This document shows positions 52,159-61,848 of a stretch of 64,000 nucleotides of DNA, piece after piece. Positions within the stretch are counted from its first letter, which is position 1. Each line of letters begins with the position of its first letter. Source of the stretch: a virus. Below the pieces are notes generated by a model. That model ran no database searches, was not told the DNA's origin, and saw nothing but the letters and a program-made list of their open reading frames with translations. The DNA lies in the IMG/VR virus record IMGVR_UViG_3300011254_000489, positions 1 to 64,000 of that record; one strand, given 5' to 3'. The translations under genes and the position numbers were made by a program.

Positions 52159-52524
52159 TCATTCTTCTTCATTAACATCACCTTGATGGGAAGAAATCTC
52201 AGCATTTATTCTAGAAAAGTTCTGCATCATCTTCTGCAAAACTTCGGATAGGTCTAACCTATCTACTGACTCGGCGGCTAATTGCATGTAAGTCATTGTC
52301 CCTATGACAATAGGAAAAGAAATTGTATTGAAAGTGCTACCAACAATAAGTGACCAATGCACTACAAAAGCACCTCTTACTTGTTCATTGGTATTTTGTA
52401 CTTTAGGCCAAACAGAAGAAAAGTCTTCTTTGAATTGTTTGGGTATTTTCTTTTCGTGTCCAATAGCCCACTTTGAAAATTCTTTTGGTTTTTTGGACAA
52501 CAGTTTTAGTTTACTAATCTTCAT
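52159..52524 (-). CDS. Hypothetical protein
   Basis: 121-aa ORF. Confidence 0.5.
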   Translation of the reverse strand: MKISKLKLLSKKPKEFSKWAIGHEKKIPKQFKEDFSSVWPKVQNTNEQVRGAFVVHWSLIVGSTFNTISFPIVIGTMTYMQLAAESVDRLDLSEVLQKMMQNFSRINAEISSHQGDVNEEE

Positions 52525-53132: not shown

Positions 53133-54650
53133 CTATTCCTCTTTAAGTACTGCGACTTCTGTAGATAAGAACATTAGAGCGATTGACATAGCGGCGGATA
53201 GACTGCTCTTAGTTACTTTAACAGGGTCAATGACTCCTTCTTCCCAAAGGTTTTCTACTTCTCCTGTTTTTGCATTGTAGCCTATTAGGTCACTAGGTTT
53301 GATATTGTCCCAAACTTCTTCGCTAGCATCTCCGTTCTGTAATAGAACACTAATTGGAGTCATAAAAACATCAGCAAGATATGGTAGATTAGGAATATCA
53401 ATTTCTTTCTTCATTTCTTGGAAGGCCAATAACAAACCTAGACCTCCGCCAACAATAACTCCTTCTTGTAGTGCGGCCTTCGTAGCGTTTAGAGCGTCAT
53501 CAAGCCTTTCTTTGGTTTCTCTTAATTCAACACTAGAACCGCCACCTACAGTTATTACTGCAATGCCTCCCTTTAATCTAGAAATTCTAGTGGTGAGTCT
53601 TTCCCTAATCCAATCATTGTTAGCAACCTTGTATAATTCAGTTAGTGCTTCTACTCTTTCTTGGGGATTTCCAATACCGCCTATGATTGTTGAATCAACT
53701 TGGTTCAATATGACCTTATCACATTCGCCAAAGGAAGACTCATCAACAATTCGCAAATCATCCTTTGCTTCATCGGAGAATAATTTCCCCCCTACGACAG
53801 AAATAATATCTTTCAATTCATCTAGTCTAGCATCACCATGATTAGGGGCTTGTGTTACACCAATCTGTATTCTTCCTTGAACAACATTCGCTAATACATT
53901 AGATAGAGCAGAACCTCTTAAGTCTCCACAAATCAAATATAATGGGCGACTCTTAGAAGAAGCATACTCTAGCGCAGGAAGAATATCACTAAAGTTAATG
54001 ATTGTCTTATTAGTACAGAACACTAGGGGCTTCTCTAGAATACATTCGCCACTATCTTGATTAGCAAATAAGTGACTAGCATATCCATTATCTAACTCTA
54101 GACCTTCTTTTAATTCAAAATCTGTGCTTAGGCCATGTCCTTCTTCAACAGAAATAACTCCGTCTTTACCTACATGGGAAAATACTTCCGCAATCAATTC
54201 TCCCAAAACAGGGTCATTGTTAGCGGCAATTGTAGCAACATCTAGAATAGAATCATCGGTTACTGGTTCAGCCAAGTTATCTAGGTACAACATCATTTCA
54301 TCCCTAACATACTCTAAATTATTTCTAATAGAATGTAGGTTGTTTAAGGGCATAGCCATGATAGAATTACAAAGAGACTGTGCTAAAACACAGGCCGTTG
54401 TTGTTCCATCACCTGCCTTAGATTGTGCTTTGAATGCTAGATTCTGTACCAATTGGATTCCCATTTGAACATAAGGGTCTTCGTGACTAACATATTTAGC
54501 AATTGTTACACCATCATTGATGACAACAGGCGGAGTACCCTGTAGGATAGCAGTACGGGCTTGTGGGCCTAGTGTTGGTCTAACAGTGTCAGCAACCAAA
54601 TTGATGCCCTGTAGAATTTTTTCCTTTACTTCATTACCAAATAGAATCAT
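53133..54650 (-). CDS. groEL: Group I chaperonin GroEL-like
   Basis: TLGP, NDGVTIA, AGDGTTTA, ATIAAN, LDDALNATKAA, GGG, GVIDPVKV; apical domain is group I-like. Confidence 0.92.
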   Translation of the reverse strand: MILFGNEVKEKILQGINLVADTVRPTLGPQARTAILQGTPPVVINDGVTIAKYVSHEDPYVQMGIQLVQNLAFKAQSKAGDGTTTACVLAQSLCNSIMAMPLNNLHSIRNNLEYVRDEMMLYLDNLAEPVTDDSILDVATIAANNDPVLGELIAEVFSHVGKDGVISVEEGHGLSTDFELKEGLELDNGYASHLFANQDSGECILEKPLVFCTNKTIINFSDILPALEYASSKSRPLYLICGDLRGSALSNVLANVVQGRIQIGVTQAPNHGDARLDELKDIISVVGGKLFSDEAKDDLRIVDESSFGECDKVILNQVDSTIIGGIGNPQERVEALTELYKVANNDWIRERLTTRISRLKGGIAVITVGGGSSVELRETKERLDDALNATKAALQEGVIVGGGLGLLLAFQEMKKEIDIPNLPYLADVFMTPISVLLQNGDASEEVWDNIKPSDLIGYNAKTGEVENLWEEGVIDPVKVTKSSLSAAMSIALMFLSTEVAVLKEE

Positions 54651-54862
54651 TCTTTCACCCCGTAAATGTCACTGTATTGGACAAAGATAAATCCACGATT
54701 CTTCTTTGCTTTCTCTATAGAATAGAAGATTGTTTTTCCTATCAAGGAAGAATCACATTGACAATCAATGACTGTCCCTTTGTTTTCTTCTAAGGAAATG
54801 ATTCCGTGTGTACTCTCTTTCTCTTCGCTTTTAACGACGACCCAATCACCGACTGCTTTCAT
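54647..54862 (-). CDS. groES: GroES-like co-chaperonin
   Basis: MKAVGDWVVVK..E.ESTHGII...DIYGV; coupled to groEL. Confidence 0.8.
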   Translation of the reverse strand: MKAVGDWVVVKSEEKESTHGIISLEENKGTVIDCQCDSSLIGKTIFYSIEKAKKNRGFIFVQYSDIYGVKE

Positions 54863-55188: not shown

Positions 55189-55404
55189 TCAAGCCTCCAT
55201 ACCATTAACACTAACCATGTTAGCAAATTCCCATTGATGGAACATTTCATGTCCACCAATAAAACCACCTGCTTCTCTAATAGGCCCAATAAATTGTGCA
55301 GAACAAATTTGACAATACACCATTACTATTCTTTCATCAATATGTGAACCTACTTTTGTTTCGTAAGAAATTATTTTTCCTATATCTTTTTCTGTATAAG
55401 TCAT
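55189..55404 (-). CDS. C2H2-type Zn-finger small protein
   Basis: CQIC...HEMFH. Confidence 0.55.
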   Translation of the reverse strand: MTYTEKDIGKIISYETKVGSHIDERIVMVYCQICSAQFIGPIREAGGFIGGHEMFHQWEFANMVSVNGMEA

Positions 55405-55946
55405 TCTTCTTCCCCTCCAATAAAACCTTTATTCATGTGTTGAATTCTTGTTGAGAATTCGTCAATACTTTCGTAGGTAATTATCTTTAGTAGTTCGGGT
55501 AGTTTATTACTCCAAACTCCATAATGGTCATACCCACCTAGAACATAGGCGGATTCCATCTTGGCTCCCCAAATTCTAATTGTTCTCCAATCAACCCCAC
55601 TGAAATAAGCACTACCGAAAGGATGCGTATGTATCCAACACTTAATCGGTAACTTCATCCCTACAGGGTTAATTTGAAAATCAACATAGCCCGATGAACC
55701 ACTAGAAATATGTAGATTCCAATTAGCATCAACTACTACCTGTACTTCTAAGTTAGGCAATATCACTGTAGACGCTTCCCAAATCGCTGAATGGAATGTG
55801 GTGTGTTTTATTATTTCTTCACCGTCTTGGTTTATTAACATCTCATCAAAGACTCCTTGAATGTAAGGCTCAACTAAACCTCTTAATTCCTGTAGATGTT
55901 TCGCTTTTAGCAATTCAACTGAATTCATTGTTGTTCTACTACTCAT
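55401..55946 (-). CDS. JAB/JAMM (MPN+) metalloprotease
   Basis: Catalytic E (LEVQ) and HTHP-x4-FSxxD (WIHTHPFGSAYFSGVD) JAMM motif. Confidence 0.88.
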   Translation of the reverse strand: MSSRTTMNSVELLKAKHLQELRGLVEPYIQGVFDEMLINQDGEEIIKHTTFHSAIWEASTVILPNLEVQVVVDANWNLHISSGSSGYVDFQINPVGMKLPIKCWIHTHPFGSAYFSGVDWRTIRIWGAKMESAYVLGGYDHYGVWSNKLPELLKIITYESIDEFSTRIQHMNKGFIGGEEE

Positions 55947-55947
55947 T

Positions 55948-56109
55948 TTAAATTCCTCCATTTAAAAAATAACCAAAATATAGAAGTGAAAGGACTCCTG
56001 CTGAAAACAAAAAACAAGTATAACAAGTGTAAATTAAAAGTATTCCAGTAGTAAATTCCTCTAAAGTTAGTTTTTTATTGTTTTCTGTTTCTATATCATA
56101 TACTCCCAT
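55948..56109 (-). CDS. Small membrane protein (not in ORF track)
   Basis: MGVYDIETENNKKLTLEEFTTGILLIYTCYTCFLFSAGVLSLLYFGYFLNGGI, 53 aa. Confidence 0.5.
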   Translation of the reverse strand: MGVYDIETENNKKLTLEEFTTGILLIYTCYTCFLFSAGVLSLLYFGYFLNGGI

Positions 56110-56118
56110 ATTATCACC

Positions 56119-56694
56119 TCAAACATTTATCACGGCAAAGCCGTTTACTTCTTCATCATTAAACCAACGCTGAATCCATTCAGCACCCATTCCTGCAATA
56201 GCAACCTGTAAGAAATGTACTCCTTCTGTAGAGCCATCCCATGAATCACCTTGACAGGAAAAACTACCATCCGGCCCTGCTAGCATAGTATCATACATTT
56301 TAGGGTCGGCCTTGTAGGATACATAGGCGGCGTTCCTTGCTTGGGAGCGAAGGTCTAGCCACGCTATGTTTGAACGGTATAGCATCCTTCGTGCGGATAG
56401 ATTATCCACACAACATACTACCAAATCATATCCTTGTATTTGCCCGTCTGTTAGGATAGGGAATTTACTTGGACTGATGGGATACCTCTTTTGTAGGGCC
56501 ATCACTTTCAATTCACCCACTTCATCTTCCGTGAAGTTTTGGTAAGGTAGGTTCTTTGTATCTACGGTGTCGGGGTCACTTACGCTAATCGTGTAAAGGC
56601 CCGTCTTATCTAGTAGTGGGATTAGAAAACTTCCAATTCCACCGGCTCCAATTATCAATATTTTTCTATTCATTTTTATTCCTCCAATCTTCAA
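56119..56694 (-). CDS. ThiF/MoeB/E1-like adenylating enzyme
   Basis: ILIIGAGGIGS Rossmann loop, DPDTVDTKNLPYQ, CCVDNLSARR, candidate catalytic Cys in FSCQ; start likely MNRK. Confidence 0.9.
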   Translation of the reverse strand: MKIGGIKMNRKILIIGAGGIGSFLIPLLDKTGLYTISVSDPDTVDTKNLPYQNFTEDEVGELKVMALQKRYPISPSKFPILTDGQIQGYDLVVCCVDNLSARRMLYRSNIAWLDLRSQARNAAYVSYKADPKMYDTMLAGPDGSFSCQGDSWDGSTEGVHFLQVAIAGMGAEWIQRWFNDEEVNGFAVINV

Positions 56695-56932
56695 ATGCTG
56701 ATTGTGATTCTTTCATGGTATATGACATACTTATCATACTAGCAAGTCCTCTGTATAATTCATCTTGAATTGACGCATCAAACTGAGAAAACAGTGGGGC
56801 TAACATCATTCTAGTTGCCGTCACATAACAATTACATTCACGACAAACTCTATCTTCAAACTTAGTTAGAATCGGTTGAGGGTTATTCCCTTCCCAAGTC
56901 TCCATTTCTTTTTCACATATTTTACATTTCAT
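56666..56932 (-). CDS. Small Zn-finger protein
   Basis: CKIC...GNNPQP...VCREC. Confidence 0.6.
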   Translation of the reverse strand: MKCKICEKEMETWEGNNPQPILTKFEDRVCRECNCYVTATRMMLAPLFSQFDASIQDELYRGLASMISMSYTMKESQSAFEDWRNKNE

Positions 56933-56933
56933 A

Positions 56934-57758
56934 TTACCATATCCATTGTGTTCCTTGTCCTTTTATTTCGGACTCTGTTTTACCTACTGTTCGTAGGAGT
57001 TTTTTTGTTGTATCTCTACAAGTGCGACTAGTCACACCTACAACATCACCAACTTCTTTTTGAGTTAGTTGTTTAAATTCGCAAAGATTTGCTATGTAGA
57101 GTATCCCCGCTACTGCGCTTTTATTTAGAGTAAGAGTACGCATTTCGTATTCCCTCTCAAAGAAGGAAAGTAACATACTACAGGTACTAGCAAAATACCT
57201 GTCCCCTAATTGAAGGGAATACTTCTCTACCAAAGAATCAAGAGATTGAATAAAGACTCCACTATTCTTAAAATGCTTTGAAATCTTCTTGGCTACTTTA
57301 GCAACCAACCTTTGGTTAGAGCCGTACTCAGCACAGACTTCTTTTAGAGTGAAGGGCAGATTTCTTTCCCTTAATACATAATACACCAAAGCACTAGCCC
57401 TATCTTCATAAGTAGATTGACTAAATATCCCTGCTCTAAAACAAGTCATGTAGGCGTTTTCTACTCTCTCCATTTGGCTCTTTGAATTAGTCAAAGAAGA
57501 CATTAACATTTTAGAGAAACCCAAACCTACATCAACATGGCTTCGCTTACCCCTTTCGTATCTATGAACGGGCCTAGAGCCTAGAGTTCTATCTCCATGC
57601 CTAATAATTTCTCCATCATGAGTAAATAGAGAAACCGTTTGGTCAAAGGGTTCAGTTACTACAATCAACCCACAGTCTTGACATTCCTTCTCGCCCATGT
57701 ATTCGTTGTACGAAAAAACAGTACTGTTACATTCAGTACAATTAATCAAGGTTCTCAC
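56934..57758 (-). CDS. tfb: Transcription initiation factor B (TFB/TFIIB)
   Basis: Zn ribbon CTEC...CQDCGLIV; two cyclin repeats (TLKEV; AGILYIA..LTQKEVGDVVGVT). Confidence 0.9.
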   Translation of the reverse strand: MRTLINCTECNSTVFSYNEYMGEKECQDCGLIVVTEPFDQTVSLFTHDGEIIRHGDRTLGSRPVHRYERGKRSHVDVGLGFSKMLMSSLTNSKSQMERVENAYMTCFRAGIFSQSTYEDRASALVYYVLRERNLPFTLKEVCAEYGSNQRLVAKVAKKISKHFKNSGVFIQSLDSLVEKYSLQLGDRYFASTCSMLLSFFEREYEMRTLTLNKSAVAGILYIANLCEFKQLTQKEVGDVVGVTSRTCRDTTKKLLRTVGKTESEIKGQGTQWIW

Positions 57759-58959
57759 TCTCTACGGGTTCTACATATCTTTCTATGTGGTTAGCATAAG
57801 CAATTTCCAACCTACTGTTATCATCCACCAATTCAAAATTTATTCTATGTGAAGCAGAAGGAATACTCTTCATGGTAGAGACTCTTTGTTTAGTCATTCT
57901 GTCATTAATACAGACCAACAATCTAGTTACTAGTTGGTCATGTATAGGAGAATTGTTTTGAAGGTTATCAACACAAACTCCGTTCCATTTGTAGTCTCCT
58001 TCAAGAGATAAGAAAGCAGTTGATACCAATTGCCTACCCGACGATTTCCTATTACTATTCCAAGTGAATAACCAATCGTTATCTATTCCTTTGACTAGTA
58101 GATATTGTTCGCTTGTTTCTTTATCGCTCAACATCTTGACTTTATTCTTATACTTAGCAAGCGTTTGCTCTAACAAAATTTCTGCCCTATCTTCTATTAA
58201 TTTAGAAGTCCTATTCTGTTCTAAAAAGGCAATCATAACATCGGAGTCCGATTCAGTTATCTGCTTACCCATCAATAAGAAGTACAATTTTTGCGGCGAA
58301 AGAAATTTCCAAGAACCTCTATTGTGTCCATGTAAATAGTGTCCTAAATACTTAGACAAGTCTTTGAATGAAATAGTACCCCAAACAGAATCACTTATCT
58401 CTATGGCTACTTTATCATCACTTATTTGTTTAGCATTTAGTCTAACATTAACTCTTCTCCCGTTATTAAAGAAGTAATAGGGTACTCTATTTTCAAGAAC
58501 ATGGCTAATCTCGTAAGGAGTATTGCATATCCTGTAGAATAACATCATCGTTTCCGACCTACTCATGTCATTATTTACACGGTAGAGGAATCTAGATAGA
58601 TTGTAGAAAATCTCTCTCTTAGTACCCTTCAAACCATTAATAGAAATTGGTGTTTCGTTGGTTACTATAACTGAGAAGTCGTTTATTACAAATTCTAGAT
58701 AGTCCTTTGGACTATTAGTTATGTCTCTCATCATTCCTTTAATTTTTTCAGCAAAAGAGACTATTAAAGAATCTAGTGAGGTATTTACTTGGTTCGCCCT
58801 ACCATTAAAGTAGTGAGTAACAGTACTTGCATGTCCATTCCGTATAATTTGAACAGTTCCCCGTATAATTTTCTTCTCTCGGTACTGGCCGTCACTGTGT
58901 AAGGGGAGTTCTAGGCTTTTTTTCTCTGTATTATAATTTATAATTGTTGATTCGGTCAT
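57742..58959 (-). CDS. Hypothetical 405-aa protein in Ubl/TFB locus
   Basis: Long ORF; C-terminal GVCVDN....PIHDQLVTRLL..ND. Confidence 0.65.
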   Translation of the reverse strand: MTESTIINYNTEKKSLELPLHSDGQYREKKIIRGTVQIIRNGHASTVTHYFNGRANQVNTSLDSLIVSFAEKIKGMMRDITNSPKDYLEFVINDFSVIVTNETPISINGLKGTKREIFYNLSRFLYRVNNDMSRSETMMLFYRICNTPYEISHVLENRVPYYFFNNGRRVNVRLNAKQISDDKVAIEISDSVWGTISFKDLSKYLGHYLHGHNRGSWKFLSPQKLYFLLMGKQITESDSDVMIAFLEQNRTSKLIEDRAEILLEQTLAKYKNKVKMLSDKETSEQYLLVKGIDNDWLFTWNSNRKSSGRQLVSTAFLSLEGDYKWNGVCVDNLQNNSPIHDQLVTRLLVCINDRMTKQRVSTMKSIPSASHRINFELVDDNSRLEIAYANHIERYVEPVESENLD

Positions 58960-58963
58960 ATTA

Positions 58964-59122
58964 TCACATCATTCTCATTTTTGTTTTGTAATTGTTTACA
59001 CATTCTTCATGTGCTTCTATTTTCATATCTTGTGGAGTTAGTAAAGAGCCTCCACAAACTCTGCATTTTGTCGCTATCTTGCGACCTCTTGAATTGTCTG
59101 TATAGTTTGGATTGTTTGACAT
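58964..59122 (-). CDS. Small C2HC Zn-finger protein (not in ORF track)
   Basis: CRVCGGSL...AHEEC, 52 aa. Confidence 0.55.
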   Translation of the reverse strand: MSNNPNYTDNSRGRKIATKCRVCGGSLLTPQDMKIEAHEECVNNYKTKMRMM

Positions 59123-59124
59123 AT

Positions 59125-59415
59125 TTAACCCTCTAATTTATTTACTTCGTGGTATTTAACATATACATCAAAATCTTTAATGTATTTTGCTAAGTATTGG
59201 TTAAACCCAATAGTCACGGCTTCATCAATATCAAAAAGATAATTCTTTAATTTAGAATTTAAGAAGAAGACTTGTTCTTTTTCGTCGTCAATCAACAACG
59301 AATGTCGTAGTGCCGTCTCAACGAATAATTGCCCCTCCACCGATAACATAGGTAGAAGTGACTTAACTACTGCTCTACAATGAGCAAAGTTACGATAGAG
59401 GGGCATAAGCACCAC
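59125..59415 (-). CDS. Hypothetical protein
   Basis: 96-aa ORF. Confidence 0.45.
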   Translation of the reverse strand: MVLMPLYRNFAHCRAVVKSLLPMLSVEGQLFVETALRHSLLIDDEKEQVFFLNSKLKNYLFDIDEAVTIGFNQYLAKYIKDFDVYVKYHEVNKLEG

Positions 59416-59452
59416 GGTTTAAGGGATGGTTTTATTCATCAACAAGGGGGGT

Positions 59453-59659
59453 TCAACAGGAACCTCCAACAATAGCAGGAGTCAAGTCCACGCTACTAAC
59501 AGTATCCCAATTGATTGTGTTAATGTCTTGGCGGCTTACCATCTCACCATCAACGAAAACCCAATGTGTGGGGTGTGTTTCAATTTGTTCTACAACCTTC
59601 TCTACTGAGAGTTGCAATTCAGTGTGTCCTGTTTCATTTAAAATCGTTAGTGTAATCAT
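59453..59659 (-). CDS. Ubiquitin-like (beta-grasp, ThiS/MoaD/SAMP-like) protein with GG-SC C-terminus
   Basis: 68 aa; beta-beta-alpha-beta pattern, WVFVDGEMV, terminal VDLTPAIVGG followed by SC; GAGGTGA SD. Confidence 0.8.
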   Translation of the reverse strand: MITLTILNETGHTELQLSVEKVVEQIETHPTHWVFVDGEMVSRQDINTINWDTVSSVDLTPAIVGGSC

Positions 59660-61773: not shown

Positions 61774-61848
61774 TGGCGGGCATAACAGGAATTGAACCCG
61801 TATCTTCGGCTTAGAAGGCCAAAATGCTATCCATTACACCATATGCCC
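61774..61848 (-). tRNA. tRNA-Arg(UCU)
   Basis: GGGCATA/TATGCCC acceptor stem, anticodon arm TTGGC-CTTCTAA-GCCGA, GGTTCAATTCC T-arm, encoded CCA. Confidence 0.92.

Follow-up and report, generated by a model that had tools for sequence, protein, structure and literature searches.

A magrovirus locus encoding a ubiquitin-like protein, an E1-like enzyme and a JAMM protease, with a related system in its presumed Poseidoniales hosts

The window analysed here comprises positions 1 to 64,000 of the IMG/VR virus record IMGVR_UViG_3300011254_000489 and is part of a complete viral genome of 87,023 bases (CheckV 100%). Magrovirus hallmarks in the record are a chaperonin (Pfam Cpn60_TCP1, 1.9e-38) and a large, ligase-sized open reading frame (ORF). 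Beyond about 33 kb, all the way to the end of the window, genes lie on the minus strand, and this region encodes a ubiquitin-like protein (Ubl), an E1-like adenylyltransferase and a JAMM protease (JAB). An earlier reading made from the DNA letters alone (the sequence-only reading) had proposed that these three co-oriented genes, together with an embedded gene for a transcription factor of the TFB/TFIIB type, form a viral conjugation cassette. All three genes are present on the minus strand, and their motifs were checked by translation. The four genes are as follows (lengths in amino acids, aa):

59453..59659, minus strand: pro-Ubl, 68 aa, a beta-grasp protein ending PAIVGG-SC-stop
56119..56694, minus strand: minimal E1-like (ThiF family, Pfam ThiF) adenylyltransferase, 191 aa from a TTG start
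55401..55961, minus strand: JAMM/MPN+ metalloprotease (JAB), 186 aa, recognized by its invariant motif and fold
56934..57758, minus strand: TFB/TFIIB-like transcription factor, 274 aa, NCBIfam TFIIB 2.9e-13 (below the cut-off), Pfam TFIIB repeat 4e-4

The Ubl adopts a beta-grasp fold and ends in a nearly invariant Gly-Gly. The well-folded part consists of 66 aa and includes the conserved Gly65-Gly66 (59467-59462), which is followed by a Ser-Cys tail (59461-59456) and the stop codon. An AlphaFold2 (AF2) model based on a 74-sequence alignment has a pLDDT of 86.9 and the element order b-b-a-b-b-a-b. The top 50 Foldseek rows are all chains of the Ub/NEDD8/ISG15/SUMO type (best E 5.9e-3, TM ~0.4-0.5). 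VIA-align returned a Ub variant (Z 5.5), MoaD (5.3), Fubi (5.2) and the Ubl of a bacterial E1-E2-Ubl complex (8tyz_B, 5.2), with lower rows for CysO (4n6e_B, 4.7), ThiS (4.4), TtuB (4.4), BubA (4.3), SAMP1 (4.3) and Urm1 (in the range 4.2-4.7). These structure matches establish the small ORF as the beta-grasp protein that had been expected, and their modest scores leave the branch of beta-grasp Ubls undefined. At the sequence level the Ubl matches no Pfam family at E<=1 (ThiS, MoaD and ubiquitin included), no PHROG and no PADLOC model; its family profile retrieved a single chance-level row from the PDB sequences, and tblastn against 50,697 deposited phage records gave no match. The family comprises 507 clusters at 90% identity and includes a protein named from the Poseidoniales virus YSH_150918.

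The C-termini of this family combine a strictly kept Gly-Gly with a free-running tail. The Gly-Gly is invariant in the 74-sequence alignment. Among the 120 best homologues, 113 carry PAIVGG, four carry A-I-(V/I)-GGG, and the Gly-Gly lies 0-4 residues from the C-terminus in 117; the exceptions are one protein with 33 extra residues and two with GD or RG replacing GG. The residues that follow are hypervariable (none in 18, CY in 23, NY in 11, SL in 6, with NL, NV, SC and others in the remainder). Viral Ubls carry 0-2 residues after PAIVGG; in 16 of 59 viral copies the GG is free, with nothing behind it. The constant GG and the variable tail together give the appearance of a cleaved precursor, in which, given the free-GG family members, the tail is optional.

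The E1-like protein is a reduced adenylyltransferase with an invariant cysteine. Judged from homologue lengths, translation likely starts at Met8 (56673), giving 184 aa. The protein matches Pfam ThiF at 1.7e-16 (60.5 bits against a cut-off of 28.1) and contains GAGGIGS (56649-56629), DPDTVDTKNLPYQ, CCVDNLSAR (Asp97 at 56406-56404) and FSCQ (Cys147 at 56256-56254), so that the E1-like adenylase suspected from the letters alone is borne out. Across an alignment of 121 sequences, from a family of 572 clusters at 90% identity, GAGGIGS, two Asp, NL-x-Y-Q, Lys63, CCVDN, WLDLR and S-C-Q are conserved, with GxGxxG, Asp97 and Lys63 invariant; Cys147 is present in 121/121 and is kept in the related host forms described below. 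The position of the canonical Arg of NLxRQ is taken by an invariant Tyr (NLPYQ) in the 121 viral-type E1s and by His in host forms (NLGHQ, NLAHQ, NLPHQ). The best PDB sequence match is Uba4 (6e-7), MccB matches at 4e-5, and PADLOC E1-E2 models match with a best value of 1.3e-10 over the Rossmann part only (residues 9-106). Pfam finds no C-terminal rhodanese domain, and the score of a MoeZ/UbaA/Uba4-type equivalog is not reached. Co-folding of the E1 with Ubl residues 1-66 scored 0.25 against a mark of 0.32, a value that weighs neither way on binding.

The third protein is a JAMM protease with a complete catalytic motif. Residues 14-67 make up a helical extension at the N-terminus, and the JAB core comes after it; the true start is likely Met6 (55946), giving 181 aa, again judged from the lengths of homologues. 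JAMM enzymes are defined by a Glu and a downstream HxHx7Sx2D. The window protein contains NLEVQV followed by HTHPFGSAYFSGVD, with Glu72 at 55748-55746 and HxHx7Sx2D at 55631-55590, and E72, H111, H113, S121 and D124 are invariant in 65 aligned sequences from a family of 458 clusters at 90% identity. The intact motif claimed by the sequence-only reading is thus present, with a correction to its spacing: five residues, not four, lie between the Pro of HTHP and FS. The Pfam Prok-JAB model gives 0.036 for the window protein (14.4 bits; the curated cut-off of 25 is not reached) and matches 62/65 family members at E<=0.1 (best 6.8e-5); by sequence, this JAB is best described as a divergent subfamily. 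Its family profile matches AMSH-LP (0.0013, the best), AMSH, Sst2 and Rpn11 among PDB sequences across the catalytic segment. The AF2 model (pLDDT 88.3) aligns best with PfJAMM1 (5ld9; VIA-align Z 8.8, rmsd 3.0 over 106 residues), further matches being Sst2 (7.9), RadC, Cap3 (7.5), a bacterial Ubl-deubiquitinase (8tyy_B, 7.0) and Rpn11 (6.6), and the top Foldseek rows are JAMM proteins (best E 5.7e-3). Fold and full motif together confirm the assignment to the JAMM/MPN proteases.

In related viruses the three genes are kept together. When IMG/VR was scanned with the E1 alignment, 391 stretches encoding a relative came up, of which the best 80 were kept (E1 61-99% identical). JAB is found in 79/79 viral loci with at least 2.5 kb downstream of E1, with its motif intact in all 79, and the single locus without JAB has only 1.3 kb downstream. 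Ubl is found in 50/50 loci with at least 6.9 kb upstream, in 9/10 with 4-6.9 kb and in 0/20 with less than 4 kb, the last fitting an E1-Ubl distance of 2.5-6.7 kb in viral loci. The viral Ubl is a single unit throughout the 80 loci. In viral loci that reach them, the TFB-like gene, a gene for a 405-aa protein (o405) and one for a Cys-rich 52-aa protein (zn52) stand between Ubl and E1. The expectation that the three genes would be kept together in relatives of this virus was thus borne out, and TFB is kept with them. Since each of the three proteins belongs to a family of hundreds of clusters and synteny is conserved, the triad is more than a chance assembly. JAB with an intact motif is also present in 16/16 viral loci whose Ubl ends in a free GG, which indicates that it is not kept for tail removal alone.

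Homologues of all three parts are found in Poseidoniales (Marine Group II, MGII), the presumed hosts of the virus. A profile search of 1.84 billion representative sequences with the Ubl alignment gave 139 matches at E<=0.001. Among them are host proteins with 2-3 head-to-tail Ubl units, each ending in (L/I)VGG (e.g. P0362, P0364, P0365). Ubl-E1 and 2xUbl-E1 fusions are also present (P0401, P0372, L039, L175), the E1 part of P0372 and P0401 matching the window E1 at ~1e-15. The tri-Ubl clusters (320 and 353 members) and the fusions derive from metagenome-assembled genomes (MAGs) named 'Candidatus Poseidoniales / Poseidoniaceae archaeon'; contigs reach 789 kb for tri-Ubl and 2.0 Mb for a fusion of Ubl to a domain termed X1. 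Neighbouring genes are cellular: transporters, glycosyltransferases, GDP-mannose dehydratase, TYW1, a phosphate transporter, RFC and succinate dehydrogenase. P0401 (Ubl-E1) and P0362 (tri-Ubl) have no close relatives in IMG/VR. Taking one genome per species, tri-Ubl occurs in 32 loci, nearly all in MGII, Poseidoniales or unclassified euryarchaeal MAGs. Two tri-Ubl contigs of 15 kb (L017) and 2.4 kb (L022) come from MAGs titled Salipiger bermudensis and Rhodobiaceae and are probably archaeal contigs binned wrongly.

Gene fusions tie the three host families together. In 5/5 host genomes examined, an E1 of the family lies directly beside a JAB of the family. The viral E1 profile matches these JAB-linked E1s at 1e-25 to 1e-29 over nearly their full length; it matches the separate canonical E1 of the hosts at ~1e-8 over the Rossmann part only. 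The canonical enzyme consists of ThiF and rhodanese, the arrangement of the sulfur-transfer type, and the JAB-linked E1 lacks the rhodanese. Three host layouts were observed: [E1][JAB] with tri-Ubl elsewhere in the genome (G001, G002, G004, G005); [2xUbl-E1][JAB] (L039, L175); and [Ubl][E1-JAB fusion], in which the Ubl lies directly upstream of a fusion protein of ~400 aa (L171-L174, contigs up to 451 kb). A sample of 121 genomes from the order Poseidoniales, which are incomplete MAGs and in which E1 was scored at E<=1e-15, showed Ubl in 62 and E1 in 66; 61 genomes have both, 1 has Ubl only, 5 have E1 only and 54 have neither. Because genome relatedness inflates such a pattern, we take the co-occurrence to reflect a single clade with the system rather than 61 separate events.

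Identity between viral and host proteins is about 27-39%. An E1 tree was calculated from the fusion forms, 4 canonical E1s, every third alignment row (21 viral) and E1s from 24 of the 66 host genomes. Its viral E1s group into a single clade (SH-aLRT 100), whose branch is very long (5.4). When the canonical E1s serve as outgroup, this clade falls among the JAB-linked E1s of the hosts (support 82-93, to be read with a long-branch warning). This topology supports a single origin of the viral E1 gene and suggests a host-to-virus direction of transfer; owing to the long branch and the 82-93 support at the nesting nodes, we claim no donor. Three His residues (H12, H29, H32), located within N-E-T-G-H-T and H-P-T-H-W, are invariant in the viral Ubl family. 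Viral and host Ubl units share T-G-H and W-x-F-V-D, but H-P-T-H is seen in viral units only and may be a virus-specific recognition or metal site.

Further features were noted around the host genes. In several loci a same-strand run begins with TYW1 (radical SAM plus Wyosine_form) and continues through E1 and JAB to a conserved ORF of 80-97 aa (L057 6314-8758; L058 5490-7942; L059; L060), TYW1 adjoins E1-JAB on the other strand in L039 (9941-12946), and a TYW2-like gene lies ~2.4 kb from tri-Ubl in L034. This proximity may reflect a link to tRNA wyosine synthesis or plain synteny among relatives. Host Ubls are also fused before unrelated domains of ~250-320 aa, termed X1 (P0369, P0405, P0374) and X2 (P0389, P0404), and a stand-alone X1 gene (~300 aa) is present in 4/5 host genomes; L061-L064 are the loci noted alongside these proteins. 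Neither X1 nor X2 has a Pfam family or similarity to the window. By analogy, these could be expression fusions like those of ubiquitin with ribosomal proteins, or built-in targets. One two-unit Ubl, P0373, carries LQAG and LLAG at its VGG sites and may be an inactive or differently processed variant.

The viral triad lies in a longer block of genes. In transcription direction its order is o386, Ubl, o96, zn52, o405, TFB-like, zn88, E1, a 53-aa ORF, JAB, o71, zn74, a 71-aa ORF and the chaperonin. Junctions are tight: a single base separates o386 from Ubl, and the JAB stop is overlapped by the o71 start (GAATGA). The 53-aa ORF between E1 and JAB is not conserved. Further features of the region are:

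57742..58959, minus strand: o405, 405-aa protein, always between zn52 and TFB and syntenic in viral loci
58964..59122, minus strand: zn52, 52-aa Cys-rich protein between Ubl and o405
59125..59415, minus strand: o96, 96-aa protein directly downstream of Ubl, no Pfam match
55189..55404, minus strand: o71, 71 aa, showing a CxxC...HxxxH pattern that is conserved; the start ATG overlaps the JAB stop codon
56666..56932, minus strand: zn88, 88-aa Cys-rich protein between TFB and E1, variably conserved
54647-54862, minus strand: 71-aa ORF overlapping the chaperonin start, conserved in 8/8 loci at 54-99% identity
61681-61767 and 61774-61848, minus strand: two viral tRNA genes, tRNA-Leu(UAA) and tRNA-Arg(UCU)

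Conservation differs among these neighbours. The o71 protein is 71-96% identical in 8/8 viral loci, above the identity of JAB (49-98%). It has no Pfam match and, by BLASTP and hidden Markov model comparison, no homology to the host 80-97-aa ORF in the same position after JAB. It is translationally coupled to JAB and might serve the system as an accessory that binds zinc. The zn52 protein is 63-100% identical in 5/8 loci, the five that reach that far, and is present in most of the 80 loci. In the same eight loci zn88 was found in five, three of these at 32-50% identity, and o96 is conserved in 5/5 loci extending to it. For o405 there is no match in Pfam, PHROGs or PADLOC, a single chance-level row in NCBIfam and nothing usable in the ESM Atlas, and these four libraries and the Atlas likewise give no evidence that it is an E2; it is a candidate accessory or target. 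The TFB-like gene does sit inside the viral block, between Ubl and E1, but this is a positional association only, and any functional tie of TFB to the Ubl system can only be inferred.

A few observations concern the wider region. The label groES was dropped for the 71-aa ORF at 54647-54862, which has no Pfam match and for which a co-chaperonin role would be a guess from position. The viral tRNA genes lie ~2 kb upstream of the Ubl block. Between 33000 and 64000 of the window, 7/49 minus-strand ORFs with a length of 70 aa or more have EE, ED or EEx at the C-terminus (e.g. 55401-55961, 53133-54650 and 52159-52524, all on the minus strand), and the JAB family as a whole retains its GEEE end. As acidic codons run into the overlapping ATGA at JAB/o71, acidic tails may be a by-product of translational-coupling signals. 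One run labelled RNA-Seq, the label being a guess, yielded six short contigs (95-99% alike) that cover E1, the TFB/o405 junction and zn52-o96-Ubl; they do not demonstrate transcription.

Among known systems, the set works most like the archaeal SAMP/UbaA/JAMM system, yet it falls outside UbaA by score and domain content. The Haloferax system (SAMP1-3, UbaA, HvJAMM1) and Pyrococcus JAMM1 with SAMP2 are likewise archaeal, with a beta-grasp Ubl ending in GG, one E1 and a JAMM enzyme, and they do without an E2, of which none was found here; PfJAMM1 is the best structural match of the viral JAB, and SAMP1 is among the matches of the Ubl. In contrast, the viral E1 of ~185 aa has neither a rhodanese nor a C-terminal domain, and its UbaA score is 33.8 bits where the cut-off is 450; the presumed hosts possess a separate canonical ThiF+rhodanese E1, the Ubl has no Pfam ThiS/MoaD match, its family includes tailed, tandem or fused precursors, and the present set is encoded by a virus. 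Bil and Bub operons and Cap2/Cap3 of the cyclic oligonucleotide-based antiphage signalling system (CBASS) also combine Ubl, E1 and a JAB deubiquitinase in one locus. The resemblance extends to the structures, with 8tyz_B (Z 5.2) and BubA (Z 4.3) matching the Ubl model and Cap3 (Z 7.5) and 8tyy_B (Z 7.0) the JAB model, and to the PADLOC E1-E2 models that match the E1. These systems possess an E2 or an E1-E2 fusion, of which none was found here (Pfam on neighbours; UQ_con, with an uninformative control), and they are cellular anti-phage systems, whereas the present one is carried by a virus and is chromosomal in an archaeal host. A third comparison is with QbsE/QbsD/QbsC and CysO/Mec+/MoeZ, which also pair a small beta-grasp protein with an E1 and a JAMM enzyme; CysO matches the Ubl (4n6e_B, Z 4.7), and QbsE ends in GG plus two residues that are removed by a JAMM protease. 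The E1s of the Qbs and CysO systems carry a rhodanese domain and belong to biosynthetic clusters, in contrast to the virus, where no rhodanese and no biosynthetic partner is found.

Much of this architecture has precedent in the literature. As far as the accessible text of two surveys goes, prokaryotic N-terminal Ubl-ThiF fusions, a three-tandem Ubl 'reminiscent of poly-ubiquitin' and predicted JAB cleavage at the C-terminal Gly (Iyer, Burroughs and Aravind 2006, PMC1779556; Makarova and Koonin 2010, PMC2948915), as well as Jab-E1 and Ubl-E1 fusions in some archaea, are already described. The Ubl and fusion architectures reported here therefore do not constitute a new kind of system. In the same accessible text the organisms named are bacteria, Thaumarchaeota and methanogen RC1; MGII/Poseidoniales and archaeal viruses are not among them, and archaeal Jab genes are said to adjoin Ubl-pathway genes rarely (PMC2948915). 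Lambdoid and T1-like phages encode a Ubl with a conserved C-terminal Gly (TAPI) and a JAB joined to NlpC/P60 (TAPK), a virus-encoded Ubl and JAB that, in what is accessible of PMC1779556, have no E1 and serve morphogenesis as a tail-assembly module; the viral set here has an E1 and stands in a replication/transcription module beside TFB, chaperonin and ligase. The Helarchaeota virus Nidhogg carries ThiF/E1-like proteins and is proposed to harness the host ubiquitin system (10.1101/2021.07.29.454249); the accessible part of that report mentions E1 homologues without a viral Ubl or JAB, and the host system is eukaryote-like with an E2. No literature linking magroviruses or Poseidoniales to a Ubl system was found by a search that covered articles outside subscription and without supplements. 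The main texts of the magrovirus papers PMC5434244 and PMC10160649 do not contain 'ubiquitin', 'JAB', 'E1-like' or 'TFIIB', and 'ThiF' is absent from the main text of PMC10160649. Matches to 'JAB' in 10.1101/2021.07.29.453957 proved to be accession prefixes only.

The reading we favour, at a probability of roughly 60%, is a magrovirus-encoded three-part Ubl system that is related to a chromosomal system of its presumed Poseidoniales hosts, apparently lacks an E2 and resembles the SAMP system. Folds, motifs, co-conservation, host fusions and the homology of viral and host proteins were observed directly; from these, and by analogy, we infer that the system conjugates proteins. The Ubl gene would give a short precursor with 0-2 residues beyond PAIVGG, and removal of this tail by the JAMM protease would expose the Gly-Gly. 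From family chemistry, the same cut after Gly-Gly would be expected at tails, tandem-unit boundaries and fusion junctions. The E1 would then use ATP to adenylate the C-terminal Gly, with the Ubl probably passing to Cys147 as a thioester. Archaeal SAMPs are attached to lysines without an E2, and the viral Ubl could reach target lysines in the same way, with the JAMM protease also reversing the attachment. The sequence-only reading had called the cassette self-contained. This stands in that the virus has all three parts and does not hold in that the presumed hosts carry homologous Ubl, E1 and JAB proteins, and the viral parts may act on, or beside, those of the host.

Several points weigh against conjugation. 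No E2 or E3 was found, UQ_con being the only genome-wide search (its control uninformative) and neighbouring ORFs having no Pfam match, and no target is known for Ubl attachment. A JAB that accompanies a free-GG Ubl is also compatible with adduct hydrolysis, as in CysO/Mec+. The fold cannot separate a ubiquitin-type from a MoaD/ThiS-type protein, given Z scores of 5.5 and 5.3 and all values below 8, and the TYW1/TYW2 neighbourhood of the host genes would fit a role in tRNA or cofactor chemistry. MoeB-type E1s possess the Arg of NLxRQ, which contacts the ATP phosphate, an N-terminal helix and CxxC zinc sites; the viral E1 lacks all three, its Rossmann fold having no helix in front of it at the N-terminus, and scores far below every curated NCBIfam cut-off (UbaA 33.8 against 450 bits, MoeZ 24.6 against 647). 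In an E1 so reduced and atypical, the chemistry could differ.

One alternative is a sulfur carrier, which we regard as unlikely. Here JAB would mature the Ubl, E1 would adenylate it and a thiocarboxylate would donate sulfur via host sulfurtransferases to a tRNA base, cofactor or metabolite, with no protein tagged. The matches of the Ubl to MoaD, CysO, ThiS and TtuB (Z 5.3, 4.7, 4.4 and 4.4) come close to its match with ubiquitin, and the nearest sequence relatives of the E1 are Uba4, ThiF and MoeB. Sulfur carriers with masked tails that are processed by JAMM enzymes exist (QbsE/QbsD, CysO/Mec+), and free GG ends occur in 18/120 best homologues and 16/59 viral copies; the earlier argument that a masked GG speaks against a sulfur carrier is therefore not discriminating. 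Host E1-JAB lies beside TYW1 and tri-Ubl near TYW2, and tRNA-modification chemistry is known for Urm1 and SAMP2; wyosine synthesis itself is not known to require sulfur transfer, which counts against this alternative. An ancestral tRNA-modification role of archaeal Ubls is argued in the accessible text of Makarova and Koonin 2010 (PMC2948915). The virus itself offers no machinery for such chemistry: nothing in the 87-kb record matched rhodanese, MoaE, ThiG or PP-loop ATP_bind_3 at E<=1, with controls found in 12-14/14 genomes. This extends to the whole record the absence of thiG and moaE that had been stated for the window, and it favours conjugation, though host enzymes could still serve. Conjugation is also favoured because the hosts already own a canonical rhodanese-bearing E1 and the JAB-linked E1 lacks that domain. 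Likewise, precursors of 2-3 units or fused to E1 or to ~300-aa domains would suit a consumed modifier better than a catalytic carrier, and the retention of JAB beside Ubls that need no trimming is what one would expect if the enzyme deconjugates.

The same retention of JAB would fit a third possibility, which appears quite improbable, namely that the viral parts work mainly on host parts as a counter-defence or takeover. The viral JAB could strip or process host conjugates or the poly-Ubl precursor, or the viral E1 and Ubl could compete with the host pair. Homologues of all three parts are present in the host, the viral E1 clade (SH-aLRT 100) lies inside host E1 diversity with the canonical E1s as outgroup, and the proposed hijack of a host ubiquitin system through E1 homologues by Nidhogg, as given in the accessible part of 10.1101/2021.07.29.454249, provides a precedent. 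However, a pure antagonist would not need the Ubl of its own that is kept in 50/50 far-reaching viral loci, identity of about 27-39% makes cross-reactivity uncertain, and some hosts may offer no target system, as Ubl and E1 were not found in 54/121 genomes of the order (incomplete MAGs). A peptide-modifying ThiF-like enzyme of the microcin C type or of pathways for peptides that are made on ribosomes and modified after translation (RiPPs), adenylating a small-protein C-terminus for a modified product and not a tag, can hardly be credited: MccB is among the PDB sequence matches of the E1 (4e-5) and ThiF-like enzymes act in RiPP pathways (accessible text of PMC12596934 and PMC12250964), but the substrate is a folded 66-aa beta-grasp protein with a conserved GG and not a short leader-core peptide, a Pfam scan found no transporter or immunity gene nearby, and poly-Ubl and E1/JAB fusions fit Ubl systems instead.

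Building on the E2-less conjugation system favoured above, we offer, as a tentative proposal of slightly less than even odds, that magroviruses and MGII/Poseidoniales share an undescribed E2-independent Ubl conjugation system whose modifier comes from polyubiquitin-like, tailed or fused precursors, and that the virus uses its own complete, diverged copy to tag host or viral proteins during infection, perhaps including the neighbouring transcription machinery. Most of what is known of Ubl tagging in archaea comes from haloarchaeal SAMPs and from a few systems of eukaryote-like type, and we know of only fragments reported from viruses of prokaryotes (lambda TAPI/TAPK and the Nidhogg E1 homologues). 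If the proposal is true, a virus of a prokaryote would possess a complete set for Ubl activation, processing and removal. The homologous host system with polyubiquitin-like precursors is an addition of the present analysis, and matched Ubl/E1/JAMM systems are present in a virus and a host that rank among the most abundant such pairs in the surface ocean, with polyubiquitin-like and fused precursors in the host version and a compact, strictly co-conserved viral version. Even if the Ubl is a sulfur carrier, the poly-Ubl and fusion architectures of Poseidoniales are, within the literature searched, unreported in this major marine archaeal lineage. If the system conjugates, it would represent a prokaryotic virus bringing its own protein-tagging machinery and, at ~66 + 184 + 181 residues, a minimal E2-less system in which the mechanism and evolution of Ubl conjugation could be studied.

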